A DNA stretch of 64,000 bases from an uncultured Lentisphaeraceae bacterium. GTDB taxonomy: Bacteria > Verrucomicrobiota > Kiritimatiellia > RFP12 > DVOR01. The notes under the pieces were generated by a model that saw only the letters and a list, made by a program, of their open reading frames with translations, did no database searches and was not told the origin of the DNA. Positions 9,096-44,758 of this stretch are shown one piece after another. Numbering within the stretch: the stretch's first letter is position 1; each line of letters starts with the position of its first letter. The stretch spans positions 24,378 through 88,377 of the forward strand of contig CASDPK010000004.1 of the NCBI GenBank assembly GCA_949282555.1. The letters run 5' to 3'. The translations under genes were made by a program, and so were the position numbers.

Positions 9096-10340
9096 GTGAG
9101 GCGCGCGGCGCTGGCCCTGCTGATGCTTCTTGCGTGTGGCCTCTGCCACGCGCTGACGTACAGCAATGCCTACGCTTCCCCGCGCAATTCCGAGCGTGCC
9201 CGCCGGAGTTCCACACGGTTCATCATCCTGCACACCACCGAAGCGGAGGCAGCCTCGTCCCTTCGCAAGCTGAGCCGCAATGGCGAGGCGCACTATTGTG
9301 TGGATCGCGACGGGAAGGTTTACCGCATCGTTGACCGTTCCCGCGTGGCCTACCATTGCGGCACCAGCATGTGGGCCGGGCGGCGCAACCTCGACGAAGT
9401 CTCCATCGGCATTGAAGTGGTGGGCTACCACGATCGTGCCCTCACCCCCGCGCAATACGCCACCCTGCGCGAACTGGTGCTCACGCTCCAAAAACTCTAT
9501 GGCGTGAAAGACGCCAACGTGATGCCCCACGCGCAAGTGGCCTATGGCACCCCCAATCGCTGGCACCGCAAAAGCCACCGAGGCCGCAAGCGGTGCGGCA
9601 TGGGCTACGCCACGCCCGCCGTGCGCCGTCTGCTCGGGCTGGAGGAGCGTTGGCTCGTGGACCCCGACGTGAAGGCGCGCCGCCTGACGGTGGGGGACGC
9701 CTTCTTGTCCCAAGTGCTTTATGCCAAGAACGGCGACCGCCTCCTGCCCTATCGCCTCCCCTCAACGGCAAAAGCCTCCACGCCCAAAGCGTCTTCGCCG
9801 CCCCCCGCCTCCGGCCCGCGCGAACACGTCATCGGCAAGGGCGAAACGGCGTGGGACGTCGCCCGCGACGCCTACAACGCCGCCTCCACCCTCTACCTCT
9901 TCCCCGACGGACGCCGCCTTTCAGGTGACGCAATCCGCGATTGGGAAGCCATCGTTCCCGGCACGCGCGTGATTTTGGGCGATGCGGATGCCTCCGGCTC
10001 CCCCGTCCAAACCCTCGCGGCCGGTGGGCACCCACGGCGCTTGGTGGGCGATGCCGCCCGCGCGGCCGACACATGGTACATCCGCCCGACGGGCGGCTTC
10101 GTGAGCGGGGCGAAACTCACCGAAAAGGCATTGGGCACGCTCCCGCCCGGGACCAAAATCCTTGTGGGCTACGCCGTGGGTGGCCCCGTAACCAGCCGCC
10201 GCCTGCCATCGCAGATCTGCCCCACCCGCTGGGATGCGCCCGACACCTTCTATCTCATGCCCGGAAAACCGCTCAAGAGCTCCGGGGGAACCGACATGCG
10301 CCGCATTCCCTCCGGCACCCACGTCTTCTATCGGAACTGA
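9096..10340 (+). CDS. N-acetylmuramoyl-L-alanine amidase (Amidase_2/PGRP type), probable lipoprotein
   Basis: Same frame as ORF 8865..10340. GTG at 9096 gives a signal peptide RRAALALLMLLAC (lipobox-like). FIILHTTE...AHYCVDRDGKVYRIV...VAYHCG...SIGIEVVG is typical of the AmpD/PGRP amidase fold. The start codon is uncertain. Confidence 0.75.
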   Translation: MRRAALALLMLLACGLCHALTYSNAYASPRNSERARRSSTRFIILHTTEAEAASSLRKLSRNGEAHYCVDRDGKVYRIVDRSRVAYHCGTSMWAGRRNLDEVSIGIEVVGYHDRALTPAQYATLRELVLTLQKLYGVKDANVMPHAQVAYGTPNRWHRKSHRGRKRCGMGYATPAVRRLLGLEERWLVDPDVKARRLTVGDAFLSQVLYAKNGDRLLPYRLPSTAKASTPKASSPPPASGPREHVIGKGETAWDVARDAYNAASTLYLFPDGRRLSGDAIRDWEAIVPGTRVILGDADASGSPVQTLAAGGHPRRLVGDAARAADTWYIRPTGGFVSGAKLTEKALGTLPPGTKILVGYAVGGPVTSRRLPSQICPTRWDAPDTFYLMPGKPLKSSGGTDMRRIPSGTHVFYRN

Positions 10341-10347
10341 TCCACCC

Positions 10348-11082
10348 ATGCGCACACTCCTCTTCCTCCTCCCGACATTCCTCCTCCTTTCCTTGGCGAC
10401 GGCCGCCGAACTCGACCCCATCGGATGGGGCGTCGTCTCCTCGCCGTCTCCCGATGTCTATGACAAAACCGGAAAGCGTCTGGCCGAAATCAAAGGCGGG
10501 GAACTCTTCACGATCCTCAAAGAAGTTTCCGTCAACAAAGCCCCCGCCTACTACATCGAGCTCCGCCGTCCCAAAAAGCCCCGGTGCATCCTTCCGGGAG
10601 GCGACTGCAAGGTCTTTCTCGAATTGCCCGACGCCTCCGATCCCGATGCCGTCGCCGGCGTGAAGCGCATTCAAACCCTCCTCGCCGACTACTACTCCAC
10701 GTTGGCCCTGCGCGAAACGTTGCTCGACCGCGCCGAAGCCCGCCATCGTGCCGGCTCCCCCGCCGAGAAGCTGGAAAAACTCCGGGACGAGCTGCGCGGC
10801 GTCCCTGCCCGCGACCGCGCCCTTGAGGCCGCCCAAGCCAAAGCCGCCTCCAATGCCGAACGCCTCCGCTATCAGGACGCCCGAAAGGAGCTCCGCTATC
10901 GCACCACCGGCCTTCAGGAAGAGATCCGCCGCACCGAAGCCGCCGCCGCCGAATGGGAGCGCACCCATCCCTTCAATCCCGACGCCGTCCGCAAGAGCGC
11001 CGTTTGGAAAAAGCTCACCCAGCGCCTCCGCACGCTTGAAGAGCAAGTCACCCTTTTCGGCGTCACCCCCGCGAAAGACTGA
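10348..11082 (+). CDS. hypothetical exported protein with coiled-coil C-terminal half
   Basis: ATG at 10348 gives MRTLLFLLPTFLLLSLATAAE (signal peptide). The C-terminal half is rich in heptad-like charged repeats. Confidence 0.6.
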   Translation: MRTLLFLLPTFLLLSLATAAELDPIGWGVVSSPSPDVYDKTGKRLAEIKGGELFTILKEVSVNKAPAYYIELRRPKKPRCILPGGDCKVFLELPDASDPDAVAGVKRIQTLLADYYSTLALRETLLDRAEARHRAGSPAEKLEKLRDELRGVPARDRALEAAQAKAASNAERLRYQDARKELRYRTTGLQEEIRRTEAAAAEWERTHPFNPDAVRKSAVWKKLTQRLRTLEEQVTLFGVTPAKD

Positions 11083-11120
11083 GCCAAGCCTCCCCACGGA
11101 GCATTGATGTCGGGCAGACC

Positions 11121-12707
11121 TTATGAAACGGTCTGCCCGATGGCTTTTTGGAGGCGCCTCCGCATCCGTTCAACACGTTCGGGATGAGCCCCGGCGACAT
11201 TGCGGGTCTCCCGTGGGTCCTCGGCAAGATTGAAAAGTTCCCTGCAGCGGAGTTTCCAGCGATTGTTCTGCAACAGTGTCGGCACGCCCCCGGCGCCGCT
11301 GGCCACCACCGCACGTTCCGGAGGGAAATGCTCCCCTCGAAGCAATGGCAGAAAAGAACAGCCATCCACACCCTTTGGGCAAGGCACACCAAGCATGTCG
11401 GCACACGTCGGCAACACATCGTACATCGCGACAAGATCCTGCACCACCCCTCCGGCACGGGCCATCCCGGGCCAACGAATCGCGAACGGCACACCAATGC
11501 CACCCTGGCGGTTATCCCACTTGAGCCCTCGCAGACCGGCATTCCCATTGAAGACATCGCGAAAATGCTCCGTGTAGTCGTTGGCCTTACCCTTAAGACA
11601 ACGCCCTCCGTGATGCTGGGAAATATACAACTCGTGTCCATTGTCCGAAGCAAAGAGCACCATTGTGGACTCCAAGAGTCCCAACGCCTCCAAGCGTGCC
11701 AAGAGCCGCCCCACCTCCGCATCCAAGCGGCGTACCATCGTGGCATACTCCATTTCCAAATCCGTGAGGCCCTCGGCGGTTGGGGAAGGAGGCGGCTCCA
11801 GCGGTCGCCCGGTGGCATCATCCCAATAGCACAAACGGCGGTTACGCGCACTCACCTCGGGGTCAATCGCAGGCCAAAACGTCTCTTCTGTCGCCCCAAA
11901 TCCCTCGTAACGCCGAGAGGAAGGCGGAATCTGCACCGGTCCATGCGGGAGTGTAGTGGCATAATGCAGGAAAAATGGCCGCCCATCCTGACCTCTTCTG
12001 TCCAGAAACGCCTCAGCCGCGGCAATCAACCGATCCGGGGCGTAGACGGCCTTCCCCGTCATCGTCCAACGTCGGAGACGCTTGGCATACGTTTCGTTCT
12101 CCTCGCTCTTGGCGCCATCCTTATGGGTGTTCCCCTCCAAAACATCGCGAAAAGGTTCGCCGCCTTCCGGCTTAGACCAAAGGAACGGCGGATAAAACCC
12201 GTGACAGGCTTGATGATCCAAATAACCGTAGTACATCTCCCATCCCTGCCGTGCCATTTGGCGGCGCGTGGTTTGGAAGCCATGCCCCAACTTGCCGATT
12301 TGCGCGGTGACATACCCCGCCTCGCGAAACAACTCAGGAAGCGTGCACGCGCCAGGGGGCAAAGGGATATCCGCGGCGTCCGCGGTTGCCTCCGTTTCCT
12401 TGGCCTGACTCACGCGCCAGCGAGGCGGACGATGGGCATCATGAAACCCCGTGAGGAGCGAAGCCCGCGCCGGAGCGCAATACATGCACCCGTGGGCAAA
12501 CGCGAAGGTTGCCCCCTCCTTGAAAATCCGGTCAATGTTCGGAGTGGAAAAATGCTTTTGGCCAAAATGGGAGAGCATTCCTTTGCCCAAATCGTCTGCG
12601 TAGATGAAGAGCACATTCGGCCGCTCGCGCACAGGAAGCGTCTTTCCCAAAGATACGCCGGCCGCCGCACCGATAGCCAACAGGAACTCACGTCGTCTTA
12701 GGTTCAT
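11121..12707 (-). CDS. sulfatase (Cys-type formylglycine-dependent), Tat-signal
   Basis: 528 aa, starting MNLRRREFLLAIGAAAG (twin-arginine signal). It has ADDLG and the C-x-P-x-R motif CAPARASLLTG. Confidence 0.9.
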   Translation of the reverse strand: MNLRRREFLLAIGAAAGVSLGKTLPVRERPNVLFIYADDLGKGMLSHFGQKHFSTPNIDRIFKEGATFAFAHGCMYCAPARASLLTGFHDAHRPPRWRVSQAKETEATADAADIPLPPGACTLPELFREAGYVTAQIGKLGHGFQTTRRQMARQGWEMYYGYLDHQACHGFYPPFLWSKPEGGEPFRDVLEGNTHKDGAKSEENETYAKRLRRWTMTGKAVYAPDRLIAAAEAFLDRRGQDGRPFFLHYATTLPHGPVQIPPSSRRYEGFGATEETFWPAIDPEVSARNRRLCYWDDATGRPLEPPPSPTAEGLTDLEMEYATMVRRLDAEVGRLLARLEALGLLESTMVLFASDNGHELYISQHHGGRCLKGKANDYTEHFRDVFNGNAGLRGLKWDNRQGGIGVPFAIRWPGMARAGGVVQDLVAMYDVLPTCADMLGVPCPKGVDGCSFLPLLRGEHFPPERAVVASGAGGVPTLLQNNRWKLRCRELFNLAEDPRETRNVAGAHPERVERMRRRLQKAIGQTVS

Positions 12708-12815
12708 GCGCCTGAGTATATCACAGGGAGTGCCAAGCCTCCGCCCCTCAAAAAGAGTCTTCCCCGCAACCCTTAAGAAGAACCCTCTTCACCCTCGAAT
12801 CTCTTGCGCCATCAT

Positions 12816-12835
12816 CCCCCCCCCCCCAAAAAAAA
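12816..12835. repeat. homopolymer tract C12 followed by A8
   Basis: Counted directly: C at 12816-12827 and A at 12828-12835. It lies in the divergent spacer between the sulfatase start (12707) and the tRNA promoter. Confidence 0.95.
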
Positions 12836-12884
12836 GTCTCACACTGCGCAAAATCAAAATCTGTGGCCATTTGCATTTTTTCGC

Positions 12885-12913
12885 TTGACCTGCTGGCCCA
12901 GCTATGATATTCT
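12885..12913 (+). promoter_or_regulatory. candidate sigma70-type promoter for the tRNA-Met/tRNA-Asn pair
   Basis: TTGACC (12885-12890), 17-nt spacer, TATTCT (12908-12913), about 19 nt upstream of the tRNA 5' end. Confidence 0.5.
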
Positions 12914-12931
12914 GTGCGGTGTTTTCCACTT

Positions 12932-13007
12932 GGCGGGTTAGCTCAGTTGGTAGAGCAGCGGAATCATAATCCGCGTGTCGGGGGATCGTGACCCTCACCC
13001 GCCACCA
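12932..13007 (+). tRNA. tRNA with CAT anticodon (Met elongator or lysidine-modified Ile2)
   Basis: Manual cloverleaf: acceptor GGCGGGT/ACCCGCC, D arm GCTC-AGTTGGTA-GAGC, anticodon arm GCGGA-ATCATAA-TCCGC, T arm GGGGG-ATCGTGA-CCCTC, encoded CCA. Confidence 0.85.
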
Positions 13008-13026
13008 GTGAAGAAAACGGCCATGT

Positions 13027-13101
13027 TCCGAAGTGGCGCAGCGGTAGCGCAGGTGACTGTTAATCACTTGGTCGCAGGTTCGAATCCTGCCTTCGGAGCC
13101 A
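13027..13101 (+). tRNA. tRNA-Asn (GTT)
   Basis: Acceptor TCCGAAG/CTTCGGA, anticodon loop CTGTTAA, T loop GGTTCGAATCC, encoded CCA. Confidence 0.9.
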
Positions 13102-13106
13102 ATCTT

Positions 13107-13139
13107 ACGCCTCTGGGTGAAAGCCTGGAGGCGTTTTTC
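13107..13139 (+). terminator. rho-independent terminator after the tRNA pair
   Basis: Stem ACGCCTC...GAGGCGT followed by TTTTT. Confidence 0.6.
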
Positions 13140-13188
13140 GTATTCCAAGCCCATATCGTCACAGGAGCCCTCGGCCAGCCCAAGCATC

Positions 13189-13250
13189 GGAAGGCTCCGT
13201 AGCGTGATGTGTGAGGCTCCGTATCTCGCGCTGAGATGCTCCGCACGACA
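13189..13250. repeat. REP-like composite repeat, copy 2 (shorter)
   Basis: GGAAGGCTCCGTAGCGTGATGTGTGAGGCTCCGTATCTCGCGCTGAGATGCTCCGCACG shares the GGCTCCGTATC and GAGATGC modules. Confidence 0.55.
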
Positions 13251-13435
13251 ATCCAAGGCAGAGCGGCCCTCGCGGCAAGACGCGAAAATGCCTTTTTTCT
13301 CCGGAGGGGCAAGTCATTGCACAGTGCATTTCCCACACATCAACATAAAAGCATAACGCTATTGCACGGGAGGGAAGGGCATGGTATCATAGATGCGATG
13401 ATTGTTTGCTGACCCATTCAGAAAGGTAGCCAAAG

Positions 13436-14437
13436 ATGATGCGGAATGCGATGATGGCCGTGGCGCTGAGTTCTCTGCTCGGGGCTGGAGTGGTGTGCGC
13501 GCAGGATGCCCAAGAGCCTAAACCGACGCGTTTCGACGCGATGGTCCGCGTTATGGATCTTGAGCATGGCACGGTGACTGTCACGAAGCCCGGACAGGCT
13601 GCCGAGAAGGCCGTTTCCTACAAGGCTTATCCGTATGGGACGCGCTTTGAGGTCAGCGACGGGGCCAAATTCCGCATGATGTTTTCCGATTTCACGTATG
13701 CGGTGATCAAAGGGCCTGCGGTTTTTGTTCCCCGGGCCTCGGACGAATGGCGCAAGATTGCGGTGGAAGTGACGCGCGGCGACATGAATTTCTTCGTGGA
13801 GCAGCATGCGCAGCCGGGTCAGTTCACGTTGGTGACGCCGCTCGGCACCTTCACCTCCCTGCAGGGCATGTCCAAGCTTCATGTGGGGGATGTTGCCAAG
13901 GGCACCGTCACCGAAGAGGATTTCTCCTTCCGCACGCTTTCCGGAAATGCCGTCTACGAAGGATTGCATTACAAGATGACGGGCATGACCCAGGCCAACG
14001 CCTTCGTCTCCGCCGATGCCAAGGGCATGGTCTCCACCGAGCTCACCGGAAAGTTGGGCGAAGTGAAGATGGAAATCCCTGCCGGCAACGGCAAGGCCAC
14101 CGATTTCTCGCTCACCCCGGGAGCCACGGTCAAGATCACCCGCGCCAAGCCCAAAGGCTCCGACAATTGGGTGGTCTCCGTGCTCACGCTCTATGCCAAC
14201 GGTGAGGCCAAGAACTACTTCTGTTACGTCGAGAACCGCGGTGAGGGCTATGCCACCGGTGAACTCATCGCCGAAGTGCTCCCTGAGGAAAAAGATCCTG
14301 AGGCGTCCGAAGACGCGGCCACCGACGAAACGCAAGACAACGCACAAGGCGGCGCCGCCGCCCAGCCGGAAGAGAACGGCGGCGCTCTGCCGACCATTCC
14401 CGACGAGCTGGAAAGCTTCGGCGACGACCTTCTGTAA
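13436..14437 (+). CDS. hypothetical exported protein with acidic C-terminal tail
   Basis: MMRNAMMAVALSSLLGAGVVCAQDAQ is a signal peptide. Codon usage is consistent with the genome. I recognise no family. Confidence 0.7.
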   Translation: MMRNAMMAVALSSLLGAGVVCAQDAQEPKPTRFDAMVRVMDLEHGTVTVTKPGQAAEKAVSYKAYPYGTRFEVSDGAKFRMMFSDFTYAVIKGPAVFVPRASDEWRKIAVEVTRGDMNFFVEQHAQPGQFTLVTPLGTFTSLQGMSKLHVGDVAKGTVTEEDFSFRTLSGNAVYEGLHYKMTGMTQANAFVSADAKGMVSTELTGKLGEVKMEIPAGNGKATDFSLTPGATVKITRAKPKGSDNWVVSVLTLYANGEAKNYFCYVENRGEGYATGELIAEVLPEEKDPEASEDAATDETQDNAQGGAAAQPEENGGALPTIPDELESFGDDLL

Positions 14438-33750: not shown

Positions 33751-34734
33751 ATGTCCCAGCAAGCAGAACAGCCCCTCCTCCAAGTCCGCAACCTCACGAT
33801 TGCCTTTGAGAACGACGAGACCCGACAGGCCGTCACCACCGTTCAGGATGTCTCCTTCGAAGTCCACCGCGGCGAGATCCTTTGCGTCGTCGGCGAATCC
33901 GGGTGCGGCAAATCCGTCAGCTCCATGTGCATCCCGCGGCTGTTGCCCAGCCCTCCCTCCCGGGTCCTCGGCGGCGAGATTCTCTTTGAGGGCGTGGATT
34001 TGCTGAAGCTGCCCATCGCCAAAATGCGCGAATATCGCGGCCGGCGCATCGGCGTGATCTTTCAAGACCCCATGACCGCCCTCTCCCCGCTCGTGCGCAT
34101 CGGCGACCAAATCATCGAAGCCGTCCGCATTCACGACCGCGTCATCACCGCCGAAGGCGCGCGCGCCAAGGCCTTGGAGTGGCTGGCCAAAGTGGGTATC
34201 CAAAACCCTGCCCTCGCCCTCCGGTGCTATCCCTACGAGCTCTCCGGCGGCATGCAACAGCGCGTGATGATCGCCATGTGCCTTATCTTGGAGCCCCAGC
34301 TCGTCATCGCCGACGAGCCCACCACGGCCCTCGATGTCACCATTCAGGCGCAAGTGCTTGAACTCATGCTCCAGCTCCACCGCAAAGACTCCGGCATGAT
34401 CTTCATCACCCACGACATGGGCGTGGTCTACCGCATGGCGCACCGCGTCGCCGTGATGTACGCCGGCCAAATCGTCGAGCAAGCGAGCGCCAAAGACTTC
34501 TTCGCGGGCCCCAAACACCCCTACGCCCGCGCCCTGCTGGAGGCGCTCCCCTCCCATGCCACCCGCGGGCACACCCTCCGCGCCATCCCCGGCCAAGTGC
34601 CCAGCCCCGGCTGTTACGCGCCCGGTTGCCGTTTTGCCGAGCGGTGCGACCAAGCCCGCCCCGAATGCGCCACCACGCCCCCGACCCTCTCGCCCGTGGG
34701 CACCCACCTCGTCCGCTGTCCCTTCGCCCAATGA
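33751..34734 (+). CDS. ABC transporter ATP-binding protein (OppD/DppD-type)
   Basis: It has Walker A GESGCGKS, signature LSGGMQQR, Walker [13 protein letters not shown] and a C-terminal oligopeptide-type Cys region. Confidence 0.9.
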
Positions 34735-35426
34735 TTCCCTCCCTCGCCCGCACCGAGACGCTTCTCGGAAGCGAAGCCCTCGCCCGCCTCCAAGCCGCCA
34801 CCGTGCTGATCGTCGGGCTGGGCGCCGTCGGCGGAGCCTGTGCCGAAGCCCTCGCTCGGAGCGGCGTAGGGAACCTCCATCTTGTGGATGGCGACGTCTT
34901 TGACGTTTCCAACCTCAACCGCCAGCCCTTCGCCGCCACCTCCACACTCGGACAATCCAAGGCCGAGGTCACCTGCGCCCGCCTCGCCGACATCGCCCCC
35001 ACCTGCCGCCCACAAGGGGAAACGCGCTTCATCACCCCCGAAAACGTCGAAGAACTCCTCGACCGCACCCACCCCGATGCCGTGGCCGACGCCTGCGACG
35101 ACATCCCCGCCAAAGTGGCCCTCCTTGCCACCTGCCACCGCCGTGAGATTCCCGTCTGCTCCTCCATGGGCGCCGCCCGAAAACTCGACCCCACCGCCCT
35201 CCGCGTCACCGACCTTTCCGAAACCCAAGTCTGCCCCCTCGCCCGCAACGTCCGCCACGCCCTCCGCGCCCTCGGCATCACCCATGGCATCCGTTGCGTT
35301 TGGTCAAGCGAACCCGCGCGCCCCATGCCTCCCGGCACCCTCGGCTCCTACATGCCCGTCACCGCCACCGCCGGCCTCCTCCTCGCCGCCGACCTCCTAA
35401 GTACGCTTGGCGGGATCGACCACTGA
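34731..35426 (+). CDS. tcdA: tRNA threonylcarbamoyladenosine dehydratase (ThiF/E1-like)
   Basis: ATG at 34731 forms an ATGA overlap with the ABC ATPase stop. It has VLIVGLGAVGGACAEALARSGVGNLHLVDGDVFDVSNLNRQ. Confidence 0.8.
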   Translation: MIPSLARTETLLGSEALARLQAATVLIVGLGAVGGACAEALARSGVGNLHLVDGDVFDVSNLNRQPFAATSTLGQSKAEVTCARLADIAPTCRPQGETRFITPENVEELLDRTHPDAVADACDDIPAKVALLATCHRREIPVCSSMGAARKLDPTALRVTDLSETQVCPLARNVRHALRALGITHGIRCVWSSEPARPMPPGTLGSYMPVTATAGLLLAADLLSTLGGIDH

Positions 35427-35530
35427 GCACACACCAAAAAACATTCATGGCTTGTAAGGCTTGTGACTAAGCCGCACGCTCTGTATTGTCCCTTCCGAGC
35501 CCTTATCAACAACGAAACGGCCCATTGAGA

Positions 35531-37273
35531 TTACAACGGCTTTTTAGGTGTCTTCCGCTTCGGATCTCGGTGTATCAGCCGCACCATGGCCACCTCGATG
35601 GTGCGCTGTCCCTTGCCTTCAAGAAGGAGGTCAAGACCCTTCGGCGACTTCGCCAAACCCTCGAGCAGAAGCGTGGAGGTGACAAGGCGGTCGGTATGGC
35701 CGGACGAAAGGATTTGGGTCTTGAAACCTTGATCGGTGTGATAGCGCACAAGGATGTCGGCATTGTCATAGTGGGACACCTTCAACACATAGTTCCGCCC
35801 CCACCCTTCGTAAAATGCGGGGTGGACCGTGAACCGTATCCGCCGCCCCGCCCTTGCCATGTGGTCAACGTCGTCCACGGCCTGCATCTGCAAGCCATGC
35901 TTCACGGGACGCACCGGCCGCGTTTCCGCTCCCGGCGCGTCCCTTTGCCACAGCCACCGCTCAAAGTTTTTGTAGGGCACGATCTCTTTCCACCGATAGA
36001 AATTACGTATGCGACTCTCGCGCAGACAGCACCAGGCGTCTGGCGTGTCGGCCACGGTTTTTCCCAGGGTCAGCCCCAAATAGGCCGTCAGTTCAGGATT
36101 TAAGGTGAGATTCCCCGGAAGCCAAAGCACATTCCTGCGCATGACAAGGGCCATCAAGGTTGAGGAAAGGTAGCGGTGAGGGAAGGTTTCCAGCGCCCCA
36201 AATCGGAGATGCGGGTCCATCCGTGTGTATTCCTCGTTTTCATCCCCCCACGCCCTTCCATCCGTGAAGGGCGGGAAGGCTTCATCCACCGCTATATAGC
36301 CCTGCTCGTTGAGGGCGAGACCCAGATTCTTATTGCCGACATGGCGGAGGTACATTTCAACAAACCCGTTTCGCTGGCCCATGCCCAACGCGAGGGCCTT
36401 CCGGCAATTTGCGCCCGAGAAGCCCGTGTAGACCAACTTCCCCACATCGCGCCCCATGACCTCCGCCCACTTTTCCAACTTCTTGACATAGCGATCATGG
36501 TTGGGCTGACCTTCCTGCGGGCCTTCGCCCTCCTCGCCTCGGGTGACGCTGGGTTCGTGAATGTAAATGCACCGAATGGCCGGATGCGACAGCACGCCAT
36601 CTTCCCGCAATCGGTCAAGAAGGGCAAAAAACTTCGCATAAAACGCCGCATGATACACATCATAGTTGGTCTCGGCAAAAGGCAGCGGCGCCGTTGTGAC
36701 AGGCGTCTCCCTGATGGTGGGCGCCTGATGGTTCGCTTTCAGCCAAGCGGGGGCCGCGCCCGCTTCCGTCTTGACCACCGTCGTGAGATCAACGGTTTTC
36801 CCATCCACCCGCTTGAAGAACTCCACCTTGTCCGTGCAATAGCGAAGATGAAGCTCCACACACCATCCGTTGCGGAGTTTCTCGTCCAGAGTTTTCCGCA
36901 ATGCTTGGAAGGCGTACGCTCCCTCCTCCGGCTCCAACATGGCCCACGTCACGCCGACCCCGATCATCTTGTTGTAAGGCAAAGGTTCACCGGATGGCGT
37001 CCGAAGATTGCACTTCAGTCCGCTCGTCGGCGAGGGCTTCACCCACTCCGGCAACGACCAATCCCATCCCCCGACCGTGTGCGCCTCAGCCCGCCACGGC
37101 GCCCGGCGCACGACATCGCGATAATCCACGCTTTCCGTATACCCGGGCTTTTCCTCCGAGACGGCACCCCACGCATGGGGCACCACGGCGGCAAACAAGA
37201 GGAACGCCGCACACCGCATGGCCGCGCCTCTCGTGAATAACGTCAAACACCGCTTGCACACGTTCATTTTCAA
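35531..37273 (-). CDS. hypothetical exported protein, possible glycoside-hydrolase-like TIM barrel
   Basis: 580 aa, with signal-like MRCAAFLLFAAVVPHAWG (alternative start at 37219). GVTWAMLEPEEGAYAF recalls GH42/GH35-type barrels, but I could not locate catalytic residues. Confidence 0.6.
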   Translation of the reverse strand: MKMNVCKRCLTLFTRGAAMRCAAFLLFAAVVPHAWGAVSEEKPGYTESVDYRDVVRRAPWRAEAHTVGGWDWSLPEWVKPSPTSGLKCNLRTPSGEPLPYNKMIGVGVTWAMLEPEEGAYAFQALRKTLDEKLRNGWCVELHLRYCTDKVEFFKRVDGKTVDLTTVVKTEAGAAPAWLKANHQAPTIRETPVTTAPLPFAETNYDVYHAAFYAKFFALLDRLREDGVLSHPAIRCIYIHEPSVTRGEEGEGPQEGQPNHDRYVKKLEKWAEVMGRDVGKLVYTGFSGANCRKALALGMGQRNGFVEMYLRHVGNKNLGLALNEQGYIAVDEAFPPFTDGRAWGDENEEYTRMDPHLRFGALETFPHRYLSSTLMALVMRRNVLWLPGNLTLNPELTAYLGLTLGKTVADTPDAWCCLRESRIRNFYRWKEIVPYKNFERWLWQRDAPGAETRPVRPVKHGLQMQAVDDVDHMARAGRRIRFTVHPAFYEGWGRNYVLKVSHYDNADILVRYHTDQGFKTQILSSGHTDRLVTSTLLLEGLAKSPKGLDLLLEGKGQRTIEVAMVRLIHRDPKRKTPKKPL

Positions 37274-37323
37274 GCTTCAACCAATCTCTGCGGAGAGGAA
37301 CGCCATCCCCTCCTCAACGATTA

Positions 37324-39987
37324 TTATAAATCCCCCGCGCCTCTTTTCAAGCGCATTCCGGACAAGGGTGTAACCGCACGCCGTGACCACGGATTCGCGC
37401 CACGGAGTCCCCCAAAAGGCGATGCACCGTATCGGCCGAGGAGATGTAGTGCATCTCTCCCAAGGATACGGAGCCTCCCGACACGTGAGGTGGCACGCTT
37501 CACCATCTCACCCGCCGCCGTCTCGATATCCGTGTCCGAGTAAGCCAGTTTCACCTGTTCCACGTCCTTCAGTTGCTTGCTCGTCACCCCAACCTCACGG
37601 CGCACCGCGTCCTTCCGCGCCTGCCTCACGCGCTCCGCCCGCACGGCCTCACGCATCCGCTCGCGCAAATCCGCCTTGTCCGCGTTCAGCGCGTCAATCA
37701 CGTCAGAAAGATAATTCACGCGTGCCTGTAGGCCCTCCGCCTGCGTCTCAAGTTCGCGGTACTCGCGCCCAATGTCCCTCAGGTCGCCCTCCAGCCGCGA
37801 GATGTCCTCGCGCAACCCCTTGCGCTCCTTTGCACGCTTCTCGGAAAGACTGCGCAAAACCTCGCCGTGCTCCTCACGCGCACGACGCCACGCAAAGTTT
37901 CGCCCCGCCATATACGCACGCCGCCCCAGCATCGTCGCGCGGTTGCGCACGATGTCCTGCAGGTAGCCCGCCATCCGCTCGCGCACCACAGGGGAAATCA
38001 CGCCGTTCGTTTCACCCAGCACGTCAAAGCGCCCGGACACCTCAAATGCCGTCCCCAGCACGTCCTGCCACTGCTCCGCCGACAGCCCCTGCCTGATTCC
38101 GTCCAGCCGTTCCCGCGCCTTGTCCAGCCGCTCCCGGCTCCCCTTGGAAGCGTTTGCCTCAGCATTCACTGCGCGTTCGCGGTCAAAGACAAACACGGGG
38201 TTCGTCTCAATCAGCGCATCCAGCACCTCCGCAACCACGCGCTTCCCCGCCTCCGTCTCCGAGAAACGCTCCGTCGGGTTCGGAATGTGGTAGAGCGAGG
38301 CCTCGTTCGTATGCTTGGCCCAAGCAAGATAGGCGGCGTTTGATGCCTCCAACGTCCCGGTTCCCTCCTTATATGCCTTCCATGCTTTGTCTTTCTCTCT
38401 GCGTAACCTGTTGTCTTCTTTACTAAACTTCGCCCATTCAAGAAGTCTTTCGGCGGAATCGTCCTTCAAAAAAACAAGGTTGTCATCTTCAGGCAATCCG
38501 TATCGCTCGTTAAATGCCTCACGGTCATCCAAGAGCGCGTAAAACTCTTTCGCGTTCTTTGCGTTTCGGACATGGTGCCATTCGCCATCAATGGAGGTGA
38601 GGTAGCGGGAACGAAGAAGCGAAACAGGAATGCGCTTTGATTCAATAAGCGATGCCAATTCTTCGTTCCCGGAACGTCTTGCGGCGCCCTCGAAATCCTC
38701 GCGTGTCCATTCTTCCTTTGGTTTCCGCCCTTCGTTATACGCATTCACCGCATTTCGGCTCATGCCACGCTCGGCGTCCCACCCTCTCCCGCGCTTCCCG
38801 ATCCATTCGTACCCCGGCAAATGATACTTTGGCGCTTGCTCCTCCGAGCGCAGTTGTGCTATCTTCCTCTTGAGCGCGGCAACCACCTCTTCTGAGCTGA
38901 CGTGAGGTTGAGGCGTGGCGGCAGGCGGCCGTCGATGAGCACCGCCCTGTTCTCCCGCCTCAATCTCATATCCCGTGACGATGGGGTTCCCGTTCTCGGA
39001 AAACGCGACAATTGCCCGTACCCCATCCTTGTCAAAGTGTTTCGTATTGAGGCGCTCCATGGTCACTCTGCCACGCTCAGCGCTTTCACCTACTCGAACA
39101 GCGATTTCAACAGCGTCATCAAGTGTTGCTCCGTCCTTCTTCATCCGCTGCTCGACGATGTGGAGCATCCCGTGCCCACCTTTTCCCATCTTCCCGATAG
39201 GATATTCAATCTCGCCATATTCCGCGTTGTGCAACGTGACCGACGGCTCTCCGTTTGCCAACCCCTCCATTACGTCTACCACATCCTTCTGAACAGGAAT
39301 GTGGTACTTCGCGCCCTGCGCTGAACTGTTCGGAGATTCCGAACGGTTCCCCGTGGGCGCCGTGCCCGCGCCTTGGTCCTGTTGGGCGCCGCTTGCGGCG
39401 GCCCCCGCTTCCTTCCGCAAGAAGGCCTCCAGCACCGATGCCACATTCTGCGGAGAACCTGCGGAATCCGCCACAGCTTGCGCCTCCCTGCGCCATGCCA
39501 TCGCATTTACGGCGTAAATCCAGTTCCTAACTGCACCGGCCAGCGTGCGCAGGATTTTGCGCACCTTCCCGCCCTGCGGTTCATTGAGCCGCGCGTCCTC
39601 CTGCGTGGTGAACGCGTCGCGCAATTCCGCGCCGAAAGCGTCCGCGAACGCCTCCTCGTCGAACGCGCCGTCCTTGCCCCTGAAGCGCTCGGCCAGTGCC
39701 GCGTCCATCTCCTCCGTCAGCGTCCCCGTCCTGCGCAAAACGTCCAAGAGATTGTGCGCCAGTTCGTGCCCCAGCAGGAAGGTGGAGCCGCTCTGCGACT
39801 GTTGCTGAATCTCGATGACGGCGTTCACGGGTTGCGTCGCGTCCACCTCCGTTCCGTCCGCCGCGCGGATGAACACGCCATCGGGAACGACGCCCTGCGC
39901 CGCGTGCGCCTCTGCGTCCGGGTCCCGCACCTGCTGGACGAAGCGGATTTCCGTCGCGGGCGCGTTCGCCCCGCCAAAACGCACCAC
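37324..39987 (-). CDS. large multidomain protein resembling a phage/ICE polyvalent protein fragment (HExxH zincin motif, nuclease-like middle, coiled-coil tail)
   Basis: 887-aa ORF whose track start is GTG. The frame is open right up to the stop of the upstream gene. It has LLGHELAHNLL (HExxH), three K/LYH(I/L)P linker motifs, GKGGHGMLHIVEQRMKKDG, and a roughly 200-aa heptad-rich C-terminal part. The last roughly 60 codons are encoded by a REP-like repeat. Confidence 0.6.
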   Translation of the reverse strand: MVRFGGANAPATEIRFVQQVRDPDAEAHAAQGVVPDGVFIRAADGTEVDATQPVNAVIEIQQQSQSGSTFLLGHELAHNLLDVLRRTGTLTEEMDAALAERFRGKDGAFDEEAFADAFGAELRDAFTTQEDARLNEPQGGKVRKILRTLAGAVRNWIYAVNAMAWRREAQAVADSAGSPQNVASVLEAFLRKEAGAAASGAQQDQGAGTAPTGNRSESPNSSAQGAKYHIPVQKDVVDVMEGLANGEPSVTLHNAEYGEIEYPIGKMGKGGHGMLHIVEQRMKKDGATLDDAVEIAVRVGESAERGRVTMERLNTKHFDKDGVRAIVAFSENGNPIVTGYEIEAGEQGGAHRRPPAATPQPHVSSEEVVAALKRKIAQLRSEEQAPKYHLPGYEWIGKRGRGWDAERGMSRNAVNAYNEGRKPKEEWTREDFEGAARRSGNEELASLIESKRIPVSLLRSRYLTSIDGEWHHVRNAKNAKEFYALLDDREAFNERYGLPEDDNLVFLKDDSAERLLEWAKFSKEDNRLRREKDKAWKAYKEGTGTLEASNAAYLAWAKHTNEASLYHIPNPTERFSETEAGKRVVAEVLDALIETNPVFVFDRERAVNAEANASKGSRERLDKARERLDGIRQGLSAEQWQDVLGTAFEVSGRFDVLGETNGVISPVVRERMAGYLQDIVRNRATMLGRRAYMAGRNFAWRRAREEHGEVLRSLSEKRAKERKGLREDISRLEGDLRDIGREYRELETQAEGLQARVNYLSDVIDALNADKADLRERMREAVRAERVRQARKDAVRREVGVTSKQLKDVEQVKLAYSDTDIETAAGEMVKRATSRVGRLRILGRDALHLLGRYGASPFGGLRGANPWSRRAVTPLSGMRLKRGAGDL
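37400..37495. repeat. REP-like composite repeat, copy 4 (inside the 3' end of the 887-aa ORF)
   Basis: ...GGCGATGCACCGTATCGGCCGAGGAGATGTAGTGCATCTCTCCCAAGGATACGGAGCCTCCC. This is the reverse orientation of copy 6. Confidence 0.7.
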
Positions 39988-40000
39988 GGTGGAGCCGTCC

Positions 40001-40031
40001 TCAAAACGAAAAGGCCCCGCGGGGCGGGGCC
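40001..40031 (-). terminator. rho-independent terminator of the DUF3467-like gene
   Basis: On the minus strand it reads GGCCCCGC-CCC-GCGGGGCC followed by TTTTCGTTTTGA. It ends about 14 nt before the first candidate start of the 887-aa ORF. Confidence 0.75.
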
Positions 40032-40056
40032 TTGGCCAAATGCGATGCGGCAGGGA

Positions 40057-40314
40057 TCACGCTTCCGGCGGCTTGTTGTCGGGATTGCGGCGGATGTAGC
40101 CGAGCTCCTCAAGCTTGCGGACAATCTGGGTCATGGCTTCGTAGGTACGGAGGAAGCCTTGGGGGTTGAGGATGATGCGCTCAAACGGTTTGGGCACGGG
40201 CTTGCCATTGTTCTCAGGGCTGGGCTGAAGGCGCATAAGGTCCAGGCGGATGGTCTGCTCCAGCATGTGGATCTGGTAGACGCCGTCGGCATAGATTTCG
40301 GTTTCGATGGCCAT
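40057..40314 (-). CDS. small DUF3467-like protein
   Basis: ATG at 40314 gives MAIETEIYADGVYQIHMLEQTIRLDL...ERIILNPQGFLRTYEAMTQIVRKLEE, which is similar to the DUF3467 pattern (..RIILTPQHAKRLL..) as I recall it. Confidence 0.6.
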   Translation of the reverse strand: MAIETEIYADGVYQIHMLEQTIRLDLMRLQPSPENNGKPVPKPFERIILNPQGFLRTYEAMTQIVRKLEELGYIRRNPDNKPPEA

Positions 40315-40354
40315 GAAGGCTCTCCTTGGGTTGGTACGGTCGATTCCCGGCCAC

Positions 40355-41395
40355 TCAGCCATGGGATCGCTCAAAGTCTCTCATAAATGCCACCAGCGCG
40401 TCCACCCCTTTTTCCGGGAAGGCGTTGTAGAGCGAGGCACGGAGCCCGCCCAGAGCGCGGTGTCCGCGCAGGGCCACGAGCCCTTGCGCCTCGGCTTGGA
40501 CGAGGAACTCGGCCTCGAGCGTGGCGGAAGGCAGGCGGAAGACCACGTTGGTGAGCGAACGTTCGCCCTTGGGCGCAAGCGGACGCCAAAAGGCGGAACG
40601 GTCAAGCTCGGCGTAGAGTTTGGCGGCCTTGCGGGCGTTGCGGGCCCAAACGGTCTCAAGGCCCTGTGCCAGGAGCCATTCGGTCATGTGGAAGAGGGCA
40701 TCCACGGCGAACGCATTGGGCGTGTGGTAGAGGCCGTCGGCTCGGACGTGTTCGAGGTAGCAGAAGGCGGCGGGAAGGTTGCGCCGGGCGCGCGACAGGA
40801 ACTCATGTTCGGCGGCGACCACCGCCAGCCCAGCCACGCCAAGATTCTTCTGCGCCCCGGCGTAGAGGAAATCGTAACGGGTGTAGTCGCGCGGGGCGGC
40901 CAAGATATCGCTGCTCATGTCGGCGCACAGGGGGCCGACGGGGCGCGGGAAATTCTCGGGGAGGCGGGTGCCGTCGATGGTCTCATTCGTCGTGACGTGG
41001 GCATAGACGGCGGCGGGGTCCCACCCCGCCTCGGGATCGGCCAGCGTGCGCACGCGGCCCACGCGCGCCGCCTGACGGGCCGCCTTGGCCCCCCAATGCC
41101 CGCGCACGAGATAATCCGCGCAATCGCCCTCACGCAGAAAGTTGTAGGGCAACATGGCAAATTGGCCGGAGGCCCCGCCCTGAAGGAGCAGCACGGTGTA
41201 GGCCGGGCCCAGCCCCAACAGGCGGCGGAGATTGGCTTCCGTCCGTTCGCGGAGCTCCTGATAGGCGGACGTTCGGTGGGAGATCTCCAGGACGGAGCGT
41301 CCAAGGCCCCGCCAATCCAGCAGGTCGGCCCGGAGGGCCTCGGTGACTTCGGGCGGGAGCATGGCCGGCCCGGCGCAGAAGTTGTAGATGGACAT
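40355..41395 (-). CDS. serC: phosphoserine aminotransferase
   Basis: 346 aa, starting MSIYNFCAGPAMLPPEV. It has ...EISHRTSAYQEL.. and the PLP-lysine region GAQKNLG. Confidence 0.92.
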   Translation of the reverse strand: MSIYNFCAGPAMLPPEVTEALRADLLDWRGLGRSVLEISHRTSAYQELRERTEANLRRLLGLGPAYTVLLLQGGASGQFAMLPYNFLREGDCADYLVRGHWGAKAARQAARVGRVRTLADPEAGWDPAAVYAHVTTNETIDGTRLPENFPRPVGPLCADMSSDILAAPRDYTRYDFLYAGAQKNLGVAGLAVVAAEHEFLSRARRNLPAAFCYLEHVRADGLYHTPNAFAVDALFHMTEWLLAQGLETVWARNARKAAKLYAELDRSAFWRPLAPKGERSLTNVVFRLPSATLEAEFLVQAEAQGLVALRGHRALGGLRASLYNAFPEKGVDALVAFMRDFERSHG

Positions 41396-41434
41396 CGCTT
41401 GGAACCTTATGGACCCACGCTCAACCGCACGGCC

Positions 41435-42343
41435 TCACGGGGCCACGCGGGCGCACCCCGCCTCCGTCTCCCAAGGGGGGAGTGAGGGCAGTGCGGCGGA
41501 AAAGGCTTCGATGAGGGCGGCTTCACACGCGGGCGTGTAGCGCCCCTCCGCGAAGGCGGGATAGACCTCCCCGTTGAAGCGCGCCCAAGAGGCCCCCTCT
41601 TGTCCGGGAAGGATGGGGTAAAAGCGGCAACCGAAGTCGCGGGCGGCCTTGAGGTCGCCGAAGGCGTCGCCCACCATGAGCACACGGTCGCGCGGGAAGC
41701 GGCCATCGGTGAGCGCCGTCAACTGGGCCACCTTGTCGCCCAGCTCCTGCCCGGCCACGTGATCGACGAAGGTCAGCAGGCCGTGCGCATCCCAATCCTG
41801 CCGAAGCACGCGCTCGGGGGACTGGGAGACAATCCCCGTCTCGCTCCGGCCGCGCATCCGCCGCAGGGCCTCGCGCGCGCCCTCGTAGGCAGGGAAAACG
41901 ACGCCGGAGGCGAGAATGGCGGCATTGACCGCGGAACTCCAGCGAAGCAAGGTTTCCAAGAGGGCAGACGGATGCTCCCGCAACCATCCCTCCAGCGCCT
42001 CGGAGCTCTGCGGCAAGCCGCTGTTCACGAACGCCTCGAGGTCGGCCAACGGCACAGGCGGGAAGCCCGCGGCTCGGACGGCCGGGTGGCGGTTGAAGAA
42101 GGTCAGGCTCAAAAAAATCGCCCGGAACCGCGTGATGCCGCGATACTCGGAGTACAGGTTCACGAAGTCCGCGCAGGCGATGTAGGCCTCGCGCATGGGG
42201 CCGAGCCCGAGCGCGTCCACGAGCATCGGCTGGAGGAATCCATGCTGCTTGGCGGCCATGGTGTCCACCACGCACCCATCGCTGTCCAACCCCACAAAGG
42301 AGGTGAGCGCGGGCTCCCGGCGGGCTTCCGAGGCGCCGTTCAC
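41435..42343 (-). CDS. HAD-superfamily hydrolase
   Basis: Same frame as ORF 41435..42373. GTG at 42343 forms a GTGA overlap with the mazG stop. It has VGLDSDGCVVDT (motif I) and MVGDAFGDLKAA (motif IV). Confidence 0.7.
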   Translation of the reverse strand: MNGASEARREPALTSFVGLDSDGCVVDTMAAKQHGFLQPMLVDALGLGPMREAYIACADFVNLYSEYRGITRFRAIFLSLTFFNRHPAVRAAGFPPVPLADLEAFVNSGLPQSSEALEGWLREHPSALLETLLRWSSAVNAAILASGVVFPAYEGAREALRRMRGRSETGIVSQSPERVLRQDWDAHGLLTFVDHVAGQELGDKVAQLTALTDGRFPRDRVLMVGDAFGDLKAARDFGCRFYPILPGQEGASWARFNGEVYPAFAEGRYTPACEAALIEAFSAALPSLPPWETEAGCARVAP

Positions 42344-43140
42344 GCCTTGGCCTCCGCTTTGACGGCATCCCACACGGCGTCGAGCTCTTCAAGGGAAAGC
42401 GCCTTCATGTCTCGGCCCTCGGCCTTGACGCGTGCCTCGACGGCGCGGAAACGGCGGGAAAACTTCTCGGTGGCGGCGCGCAAGGCGCTTTCGGCGTCCA
42501 CGTGAAGGTGGCGGGCAAGATTGACCAGGGAGAAGAGAACGTCGCCATACTCTTCCTCAATCGCCTGGGCATCGCCGGAACGGATGGCGGCCCGAAGTTC
42601 GGCGATCTCTTCGTCCAACTTCGCGTCGGGGCCGGCGGCATCCTTCCAATCAAACCCCACCTTGGCGGCCTTATGCTGCGTCCGCTGGGCCTTGAGCAGG
42701 GCGGGAAGGGCGGCGGGCACGCCATCGAGGGCGGAGGCTTTGGGGGCCTTGTGCTCGGTCTGCTTGATGCGCTCCCAGTTGCGGAGGACGGCTTCGGTGT
42801 CCTTGGCGTCCACCGCGCCGAAGACGTGCGGATGGCGGCGGATGAGCTTGTCGGCAAGGGCATTGACCACGTCGTCAAAAGAGAACTCGCCGCGGTCTTC
42901 GCGGATGTCGGCTTGGAAGAGCACCTGCAAGAGCACGTCGCCCAATTCCTCGCGATGGTTTTCGAGGTCATCGCCCACCATCGCGGAGAGCAATTCGTAG
43001 CATTCCTCTTGGAGGCAAGGCTGGATGCTCGCAAGCGTCTGTTCCCGATCCCACGGGCAACCATCCGGCGCACGCAGGGCCTTGAGCACCCAACGCAAGC
43101 GGTCCATGGGGGAAGGGAAATCGGTCGGAACAGTCTTCAT
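42340..43140 (-). CDS. mazG: nucleoside triphosphate pyrophosphohydrolase MazG
   Basis: 266 aa with tandem MazG domains: CPWDREQT, EECYEL, ELGDVLLQV and EEEYGDVLFSLVNLAR. Confidence 0.9.
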   Translation of the reverse strand: MKTVPTDFPSPMDRLRWVLKALRAPDGCPWDREQTLASIQPCLQEECYELLSAMVGDDLENHREELGDVLLQVLFQADIREDRGEFSFDDVVNALADKLIRRHPHVFGAVDAKDTEAVLRNWERIKQTEHKAPKASALDGVPAALPALLKAQRTQHKAAKVGFDWKDAAGPDAKLDEEIAELRAAIRSGDAQAIEEEYGDVLFSLVNLARHLHVDAESALRAATEKFSRRFRAVEARVKAEGRDMKALSLEELDAVWDAVKAEAKA

Positions 43141-43237
43141 CGGCGCCTCCTTGGCTTTGGGGCTCGTATTCTACCACACGTGTGGCGGCGTTGTGGTAAA
43201 CTAACGCCCCGGCATTCACCCAATGGGAGAGCGAGAC

Positions 43238-44758
43238 ATGAGAACCATCGGTTTCGACAACGAGGCATATTTGAAGAAACAGGCCGAGGGCCTCATGCGG
43301 CGCGCGGCAGCCTTCGGCAACAAGCTCTATCTGGAGTTCGGCGGCAAGCTGATGTACGACTATCACGCCGCCCGCGTGCTCCCCGGTTACGACCCCAACG
43401 CCAAGCTCCGGCTCCTGCGTTCGTTGGGCGATCAGGCGGAGATCATCCTTTGCGTCTACGCCGAAGACATCGAGCGCAAAAAGATGCGCGCCGACTTCGG
43501 CATCTCCTACGATGACGACGCGCTCAAGCTCATCGACAGCCTCCGCGCCTGGGGCATCCACGTCTGCGCCGTGGTGATCACCCGCTTCGATGGCCAACCC
43601 GCCGCCCTCCAATTCCGCAACAAGCTCGAAAGCCGCGGCATTCAGGTGAAGCTCCACCGCGCCGTCCCGGGCTATCCCTCCAATCTCGACCTCGTGGTCT
43701 CCCCCGATGGTTACGGCGCCAATGCTTACGTCCCCACCACGCGCCCCATCGTCGTGGTCACCGGCCCCGGCCCCGGCTCCGGCAAGCTTGCCACCTGCCT
43801 CACCATGCTTTACCACGACCGCATGGCCGGCCGCCCCGCAGGTTACGCCAAGTTTGAGACCTTCCCCGTGTGGGATCTGCCGCTCAAACACCCCGTCAAC
43901 CTCGCCTACGAAGCCGCCACCGCCGACCTCGGCGACATCAACATGCTGGACCCCTTCCACATGGAGGCTCACGGCAAGGCCACCGTCAACTACAACCGCG
44001 ACATTGAGGCCTTCCCGCTCCTGCGCGAAATCTGGGAACGCCTCGACCGCTCCGGCGAGTGCCCCTACAAGAGCCCCACCGACATGGGCGTGAACTGCAT
44101 CTCCGCCGGCATCGTCAATGACGACGTCTGCCAAGAGGCCGCCCGGCAGGAAGTCATCCGCCGTTACTTCCGCCACCTCTCCGACGCCGTGGCCAAGGGT
44201 TCCAGCGACAAGCGCCCCGTGGAGATCCTCGAGCGCCTCATGCGCCAACTCGGCCTCCGTCCCGAAGATCGCCCCGTCGTGCTCCCTGCCCGCCAGGCCG
44301 CGCATGAAGCCTCCCTCTCCCACACCTTGGAAGGCGTCGCCTGTGGCGCGGCCCTTGAGCTCCCCGATGGCCGCATGGTCAAAGGCAAGAACTCACCCTC
44401 CCTCCATGCCGCCGCCGCCACCGTCCTCAACGCCGCCAAGACCCTCGCCGGCCTCCCCGACGATCGCCACCTTCTCGCCCCTGAGACCGTCCGCAGCGTC
44501 ATGCACATGAAGCAAGGCATCCTCAAGGGCAAGTACGGCTCCCTCAACCTCGATGAGACCCTCGTGGCCCTCGCCATCTGCGCCGCGGCCGACCCCGCCG
44601 CCAAGGCCGCACTGGAGCGCCTTGCCGACCTCCGCGACTGTGAGATGCACCTCTCACACATGCTCACCCCCGGCGATGAGGCCGGCCTCCGCCGTCTCGG
44701 CATCCGTGCCACCAACGACCCCCTCTTCGCCACCGCCGAACTCTTCGTCGACGCTTAG
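43238..44758 (+). CDS. DUF1846 (UPF0371) family protein
   Basis: MRTIGFDNEAYLKKQ...KLYLEFGGKLMYDYHAARVLPGYDPNAK is characteristic of the family. An alternative ATG lies at 43223. Confidence 0.8.
   Translation: MRTIGFDNEAYLKKQAEGLMRRAAAFGNKLYLEFGGKLMYDYHAARVLPGYDPNAKLRLLRSLGDQAEIILCVYAEDIERKKMRADFGISYDDDALKLIDSLRAWGIHVCAVVITRFDGQPAALQFRNKLESRGIQVKLHRAVPGYPSNLDLVVSPDGYGANAYVPTTRPIVVVTGPGPGSGKLATCLTMLYHDRMAGRPAGYAKFETFPVWDLPLKHPVNLAYEAATADLGDINMLDPFHMEAHGKATVNYNRDIEAFPLLREIWERLDRSGECPYKSPTDMGVNCISAGIVNDDVCQEAARQEVIRRYFRHLSDAVAKGSSDKRPVEILERLMRQLGLRPEDRPVVLPARQAAHEASLSHTLEGVACGAALELPDGRMVKGKNSPSLHAAAATVLNAAKTLAGLPDDRHLLAPETVRSVMHMKQGILKGKYGSLNLDETLVALAICAAADPAAKAALERLADLRDCEMHLSHMLTPGDEAGLRRLGIRATNDPLFATAELFVDA

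Follow-up and report, generated by a model that had tools for sequence, protein, structure and literature searches.

An Orphan-Looking Open Reading Frame of an Uncultured Lentisphaeraceae Bacterium Is Probably a Silent Relic of a Phage Polyvalent Virion Gene

Introduction

How should one annotate a very long open reading frame (ORF) that is intact, yet looks like an orphan among the genes around it? The question is raised by contig CASDPK010000004.1 of an uncultured Lentisphaeraceae bacterium, from which we analyzed one stretch of 64,000 nucleotides (nt), hereafter called the window. The reverse strand of the window carries, at 37324–39987, an ORF of 887 amino acids (aa) with a GTG start, whose neighbors are serC, a small ORF, an exported glycoside hydrolase (GH)-like gene, and ThiF. 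By our own calculation, the chance probability of an open frame of 887 codons at 62% guanine-plus-cytosine (GC) content is ~3e-12.

A sequence-only reading of this DNA had described the ORF as a polyvalent protein with zincin, nuclease-like, and coiled-coil parts, truncated at its 5' end. We conclude that the ORF derives from the interior of a phage polyvalent virion gene of ~2,500 residues and lacks both of the original ends, and that it is most likely a silent relic, with inner modules that vary from strain to strain.

The Parent Phage Gene

An exhaustive search with ORF residues 1–700 returned a full-length relative, P0024, a protein of 2,533 aa encoded on the 33-kb contig L029. Its residues 845–1085 and 1301–1571 match the window with 88% and 82% aa identity (tblastn), and the nucleotide identity between window and L029 is 94.5% over 704 nt and 90.2% over 733 nt. 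The P0024 gene is the largest and last of the L029 structural block, which it closes after a T7-type portal (phrog_332, E 4e-94), a major head protein, and a PHROG "internal virion protein"; the opposite strand encodes Lar, a PDDEXK nuclease, RecT, a replication initiator, and an integrase. A full-length homolog, which the sequence-only reading had proposed to look for in prophages or integrative and conjugative elements of relatives, has thus been found in a phage structural block. P0024 itself is not recognized by sequence in either PHROGs or Pfam.

Other collections yielded nothing comparable. The ORF has no match among GenBank phages or PLSDB plasmids (tblastn); nothing was found in IMG/VR with either the ORF protein or an alignment of its N module (defined below), nor in a profile search of genome contigs with the same alignment. 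No further part of P0024 is present anywhere in this bacterial genome, and the locus has no integrase, attachment (att) site, or adjoining phage gene, the nearest tRNA being 10 kb away. The absence of mobile-element genes nearby had been remarked on before; of the L029 proteins, none besides P0024 has a match in the window region, nor do the related chromosomal loci contain one. Other small L029 proteins have homologs elsewhere in the genome, at C24:2084–2359 and C17:23690–25162 (89%, 59%, and 46% aa identity), and this similarity suggests further phage-derived regions there.

The same phage is linked to this host by clustered regularly interspaced short palindromic repeat (CRISPR) arrays. Two arrays of this genome, at C29:24700–25550 (repeat GTCGCTCCTTCACAGGAGCGTGAGTTGAAAT) and C4:115700–116180 (repeat GCTTTGCCACAGTTCACTTCACAGGTACAGCAACAC), hold one L029-matching spacer each. 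The spacer at C29:25122–25155 matches the L029 portal gene at 34/34 nt, and that at C4:115751–115782, which lies outside the window, matches L029 at 31/32 nt. The serC relatives of the host are gut metagenome-assembled genomes (MAGs) labeled Kiritimatiellaeota, Lentisphaeraceae, or Candidatus Spyradenecus. Taken together, the spacers and the shared gene fragment indicate, on sequence grounds, that the L029 phage infects this gut bacterium.

The Break Points

The 5' junction lies at 40002/40003. Chromosomal DNA ends at the T-run of an intrinsic terminator (40001–40033, reverse strand) that belongs to the upstream operon of serC and the small ORF; its stem at 40011–40033 has 10 bp, eight of them GC, and its T-tail reaches 40001. 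Phage nucleotide homology begins at 40002, directly after the T-run (window ..gtttt|GAGGACGGCTCCACC GTG..; phage ..gacgcgg|GAGGACGGCTCCACCTTGTTG), so that the 15 nt before the GTG (39988–40002, reverse strand) are phage-derived coding sequence for E-D-G-S-T. Since homology starts at this point, ~844 N-terminal residues of P0024 are absent from the chromosomal piece, as are ~950 at the C-terminal end.

What passes for a start site is also phage coding sequence. Where the window has GTG GTG the phage has TTG TTG (Leu-Leu), and the GAGGA ahead of the GTG resembles a Shine–Dalgarno site but consists of the phage codons for Glu-Asp. The GTG stands 14 nt past the terminator, and a promoter search found no sigma-70-like site upstream of the ORF, which bears out the earlier description of a terminator inside the open stretch and of a start with no promoter. 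The frame upstream of the GTG does stay open for 23 codons, back to the TGA of the neighboring gene; a stretch of this length is unremarkable by chance, and its last five codons are the phage-derived ones.

The proposed 5' truncation is upheld by the homology to P0024, which runs past the GTG to the terminator. P0024 and the divergent long proteins P0026 and P0014 are conserved straight across the junction point; therefore, the chromosomal copy is a truncation and not the original gene.

The copy is truncated at its 3' end as well. On that side, high identity to the phage stops at 37561; the next ~80 nt may be diverged phage sequence, and they are followed by a repetitive extragenic palindromic (REP)-like repeat (~37440–37482, reverse strand) that provides the last codons of the ORF and, in relatives, its TGA stop. 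In the window, this TGA has become AGA at 37456–37458 (T to A), so the frame continues for 44 codons to a TAA at 37324. The resulting read-through tail (37327–37458, reverse strand) crosses conserved intergenic DNA and the promoter of the next gene. That promoter (TTGAAA-16-TATAAT, 11/12; 37323–37350, reverse strand) is the sole sigma-70-like site found, and it is oriented toward the downstream gene of 580 aa.

That the 3' end of the ORF is overwritten by a REP-like repeat had been suggested earlier and is correct. The family has the core CGGGAGGCTCCGTATCC..GAGATGCACTACATCTC and ~50 short matches genome-wide on >20 contigs, and the short dispersed unit has a visible internal palindrome (hairpin GAGATG-CACTA-CATCTC). 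A search with 191 nt, which gave one weak match, had led to the view that the ORF tail is no repeat; the finer search overturned it. A second copy of the family lies in the window at 60981–61014.

Modules and Linkers

The protein can be divided into four modules, N, M1, M2, and C, each with a separate set of homologs. All are encoded on the reverse strand. The features that had been pointed out by eye, namely the ORF itself, its HExxH motif, three K/LYH(I/L)P linkers, a His-rich segment (located in M1), and a coiled-coil tail, are all present.

The linkers are GAKYHIP (K227–P231, 39295–39309), APKYHLP (K387–P391, 38815–38829), and ASLYHIP (L565–P569, 38281–38295). For a motif of the form [KRL][YFH]H[ILVT], shuffled sequences lead one to expect 9.9 copies in 157 related proteins, whereas 42 are present; close family members have two to four copies each versus <0.2 expected. 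All of these copies are at module borders, so the suggestion that they separate domains holds. The linkers may be processing sites, and they may also be recombination joints.

The N module (residues 1–229, 39301–39987) has 94.5% nt identity to L029 10228–10931. Its HExxH motif (LLGHELAHNLL, H74–H78, 39754–39768) lies in a predicted helix, and G-H-E-x-x-H-N-L is invariant in 12 sequences; KDGxFDEEAFAxAF is invariant as well. The conserved FDEEAFA segment, ~32 residues after HExxH, could supply a Glu as zinc ligand. It resembles ImmA/IrrE-type motifs, a likeness that serves as a lead only. The window module lacks ~80 conserved residues that precede it in P0024, P0026, and P0014 (three predicted helices and the first strand); therefore, its catalytic domain is incomplete. 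No zincin fold was matched by the N module or the ORF in Pfam, in NCBIfam, or in sequence (phmmer) or profile searches of the PDB. The AlphaFold2 model of the module has a predicted local distance difference test (pLDDT) score of 56 and no Foldseek match at E<0.1. The zincin assignment thus could not be confirmed and depends solely on the invariant HExxH and the conserved DEEAF.

M1 (residues 230–389, 38821–39300) is the His-rich module and is absent from phage L029. It is PBECR1-like, a predicted ribonuclease (RNase) of the BECR fold, and has >100 homologs, several of them within proteins of 3,000–4,800 aa; in one protein of 4,158 aa, it is accompanied by ddrB-ParB, LPD3, ART-PolyVal, and LPD1. 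PBECR1 (PF18809) is matched by 8 of ~33 small M1-containing proteins, with a best E of 2e-7. Homologs 30–57% identical to M1 match PBECR1 at E 2e-7 to 0.06, and the individually checked ones fall under the gathering score. The M1 of the window has no match to PBECR1 in Pfam at E<=1.

M2 (residues 390–567, 38287–38820) is an uncharacterized domain that is missing from the otherwise clonal strain L033. Its core reads G[YW]..MSxNAxxAYxxGxxPxSxWT...WHH[TV]..N..FY, and it is widespread, mostly at the start of small proteins of 115–340 aa (MAGYxGYSMSNNAVxAYxxGEKPLSKWTK...WHHTS). The structural model is confident (pLDDT 86.6), and its sole structural match is an uncharacterized viral protein in BFVD; there is no fold match in the PDB, no PHROG match, and no family assignment. 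The GC contents of M1 and M2 are 56% and 53%, versus 67% for N and 65% for C.

The C module (residues 568–843, 37459–38286) is helical, with a coiled coil at ~37498–37890, and has 90% nt identity to L029 11596–12327, down to 37561. The charged tail (residues ~700–860) has coiled-coil-type matches only. Searches with the whole ORF against Pfam, PHROGs, and NCBIfam gave coiled-coil noise and no polyvalent Pfam domain, and phmmer against the PDB gave nothing. The earlier idea of a polyvalent protein combining zincin, nuclease-like, and coiled-coil parts stands for the most part: it is supported by the PBECR1 matches of M1 homologs and by the ART-PolyVal, LPD3, and MuF_C domains of related proteins, but the zincin fold is unconfirmed and the window sequence itself matches no polyvalent Pfam model.

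The Same Locus in Different Strains

The fragment occurs between the same neighbors (serC to ThiF) in five assemblies of the species, namely the window, L001, L030, L031, and L033, and both junctions are identical in these five independent assemblies. At least four architectures are found at this locus (N-M1-M2-C, N-M1-C, N-Mx-C, and N-Mx'-ART-C), with module exchanges falling exactly at the K/R-Y/F-H linkers. The start codon varies among alleles (GTG, TTG, or CTG), and in L001 the allele and the phage gene remain colinear throughout their 727 aligned residues.

The comparison with L033 points to how such alleles may arise. Window and L033 have no differences in 34000–36493 or in 39969–43300; between these identical flanks lie 213 differences and a precise indel of 536 nt that corresponds to M2, which indicates recombination. 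The L033 import tract reaches into the neighboring chromosomal gene, which identifies its donor as another strain. Even so, the chromosome itself cannot be where new cassettes originate; their presumed source is the phage gene pool.

The ratio of nonsynonymous to synonymous divergence (dN/dS) of the fragment, 0.15–0.45, might be taken for selection on the chromosomal copy. We rejected this explanation because the differences are confined to one tract and the flanks are 10–30 times less diverged (dS 0–0.06 for flanking genes, up to 0.6 for the fragment). The low values are instead attributed to import from a gene pool that is itself under selection.

Other Species and Loci

Fragments of the same gene are found in other chromosomes as well, and the independent chromosomal groups begin at different residues (845, 856, ~875, ~884, and ~921), each with a few homologous codons ahead of the called start. 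In a second species, alleles of 1,139–1,395 aa share one 5' junction, at ~residue 875. Here too the alleles are mosaics, with 98% identity in the flanks and over the initial ~720 nt of the N module, unrelated sequence in the middle, and 85% identity in the 3' part. In one strain of that species (L122), a Microviridae prophage (9207–14091) with Phage_F capsid, Chlamy_scaf, Phage_ORF5, and REP_ORF2-G2P lies directly downstream of the equivalent fragment, at the place that ThiF occupies in G010. This spot may be an integration hot spot.

Some copies elsewhere have decayed: G004 has an in-frame TAG and has lost HExxH, L005 has a stop and reads HKLGH, and P0089 is frameshifted. P0005 (L041 2660–6397) is an independent chromosomal fragment with other junctions, flanked by thioredoxin/MscS/GatC genes on one side and SASA/RuvA genes on the other; at its 3' end, it is joined to ~370 codons that look out of frame. 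In 21 other species, serC and the small ORF are present and the fragment is absent. No empty site could be defined, as relatives have no shared synteny downstream of the small ORF.

A Relic or a Gene?

We propose that the 2.4-kb piece at 37561–40002 came from a temperate, podovirus-like phage of a gut Kiritimatiellota lineage resembling Candidatus Spyradenecus, in which it belonged to the largest of the virion-structural genes. The phage protein of ~2,500 aa would be packaged and then ejected with the DNA. Its center would be a polyvalent array, in which an HExxH module is followed by interchangeable effector modules (PBECR1-like RNase, ADP-ribosyltransferase, LPD3, and unknown domains) and then by a coiled-coil module, every border apparently carrying a K/R-Y/F-H-I/L/V linker. 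Peptidase processing of polyvalent proteins has been proposed by Iyer et al. (PMC5512222), who also read polyvalent proteins without mobile context as host-retained remnants.

The chromosomal piece adjoins the serC-operon terminator with no promoter of its own; it has taken its start from an internal Leu codon and its stop, which this strain has lost, from a REP-like repeat. It is therefore probably silent or made by read-through only. The conserved N and C modules would serve as homology arms for recombination with genes of the phage pool; alleles with differing inner cassettes would arise in this way and pass from strain to strain. An open frame would thereby be maintained with no need for a host function. 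Phages are known to recombine with defective prophages via recombinases of the kind that L029 encodes (PMC3945230).

Several observations weigh against a silent relic. The same central part of the gene, unaccompanied by other genes of the phage, has been retained at no fewer than five separate chromosomal loci, something that random prophage decay does not obviously predict, though the search for chromosomal loci could find only pieces containing this region. All seven alleles at this locus (7/7) and all six at the locus of the second species (6/6) keep frames of 650–1,400 codons open. GAGGA precedes the GTG or TTG by 10 nt, so translation after read-through is possible. Finally, the exchange that was seen is from strain to strain, and transfer from phage to chromosome is inferred.

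A rival explanation is a domesticated gene, in which the host expresses the truncated array, through terminator read-through or from an unseen promoter, as an anti-phage factor. The product might be a dominant-negative decoy that joins phage internal-core proteins via the shared coiled-coil module, or it might act via the RNase-like module, in which case cassette turnover would follow the circulating phages. Intact frames in at least 13 alleles of two species, the start context, the repeated retention of the central region, and the low dN/dS fit this idea, and a defensive use of such remnants was suggested by Iyer et al. (PMC5512222). However, the open frames and the low dN/dS alike follow from import out of a gene pool under selection, and a domesticated gene sits poorly with a strong terminator 14 nt upstream and no promoter found, an unconserved start codon, the tolerance of stop loss and of fusion to junk, an N module stripped of its first strand and helices, and the decay of copies in other lineages. 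We therefore consider domestication unlikely and lean toward a remnant.

One could go further and suppose that gut Kiritimatiellota retain, at fixed loci, central portions of the ejected phage protein and renew their cassettes through recombination. The pieces would then be either a decoy or poison subunit of the host against this phage family or a chromosomal bank of effector cassettes for the phages, flanked by K/R-Y/F-H joints. We offer this as speculation, with little expectation that it will hold.

We regard as very improbable that the ORF is an intact native gene whose true N-terminus is the GTG and which a phage captured into its virion protein. Many database proteins do start at the N module, and conspecific strains have the gene in the same context, which could indeed be the mark of a native gene; these conspecific copies, however, share the truncation junctions. 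The long phage proteins are conserved through the 5' junction, the chromosomal groups start at different residues with homologous codons before each start, and 21 species have the neighboring genes with no fragment. An assembly or binning chimera, in which phage reads were joined to a chromosomal contig, might be suspected in a metagenome-assembled draft of 65 contigs, but it can practically be dismissed given that five or more independent assemblies, each made from a different sample, have identical junctions.

Neighboring Genes

The genes next to the relic have features of their own. The small ORF after serC (40057–40374) has a weak DUF3467 match (E 0.12) and adjoins serC in 21 other species of the lineage. 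The downstream exported GH-like gene of 580 aa (35531–37273) varies among strains: in L001, L030, and L031, it is cut to a stub of 45 aa made of its first ~9 and last ~36 codons, after which come a GT4 glycosyltransferase and a hexapeptide acyltransferase (L001 12189–14386). The C-terminus of ThiF is also unlike between the two strain types.

Significance

An orphan-looking hypothetical protein of 887 aa is explained in this way, and its annotation as a normal host gene is unwarranted. A phage is linked to an uncultured gut Kiritimatiellota host in two ways, by CRISPR spacers and by the gene fragment that they have in common. The phage family has a polyvalent effector array inside a giant virion protein, with a short conserved linker bounding the modules; this linker offers a concrete candidate for the sites at which, as has long been proposed, polyvalent proteins are processed. 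The strain-level differences in cassettes at a fixed, probably fossil locus show clearly, in a natural setting, how recombination acts on DNA of phage origin.

Comparison with Known Systems

Among the closest known systems are the polyvalent proteins of phages and conjugative elements (Iyer, Burroughs, Anand, de Souza, and Aravind 2017, PMC5512222). The resemblance includes several unrelated modules per polypeptide, the ART-PolyVal, LPD3, and MuF_C domains of relatives together with the PBECR1-like M1, a full-length form among virion genes, and a chromosomal copy without mobile context, as in the third context of those authors. The present case differs in that the window sequence passes no Pfam polyvalent model, the array sits amid a structural-block protein of 2,533 aa with no fusion to MuF or ArdC-N, each border bears a K/R-Y/F-H linker specific to the lineage, and the copy has demonstrably lost both of its ends.

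Remnants of cryptic or defective prophages with which incoming phages recombine (De Paepe et al. 2014, PMC3945230) are similar in having a phage segment fixed in the chromosome and mosaic alleles that share blocks with a phage encoding a RecT-family recombinase. Here, by contrast, we see a single gene fragment with no integrase, att site, or phage neighbor, and the documented exchange is between strains, that between phage and chromosome being inferred.

With regard to the ejected core proteins of T7-like podoviruses (gp15 and gp16), the L029 gene is likewise last and largest in a block with a T7-type portal, major head protein, and internal virion protein; this likeness rests on position and size only, as P0024 has no PHROG or Pfam match. 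The repeat at the 3' end is like REP-like intergenic repeats in being a short, GC-rich hairpin unit in tens of copies, one of which abuts the ORF, and unlike them in giving the ORF its last codons and stop.

The object is, thus, of a known kind, a host-retained remnant of a polyvalent protein gene, for which the parent phage, the exact break points, and the host link are now identified, along with strain-level cassette turnover and a conserved inter-module linker.

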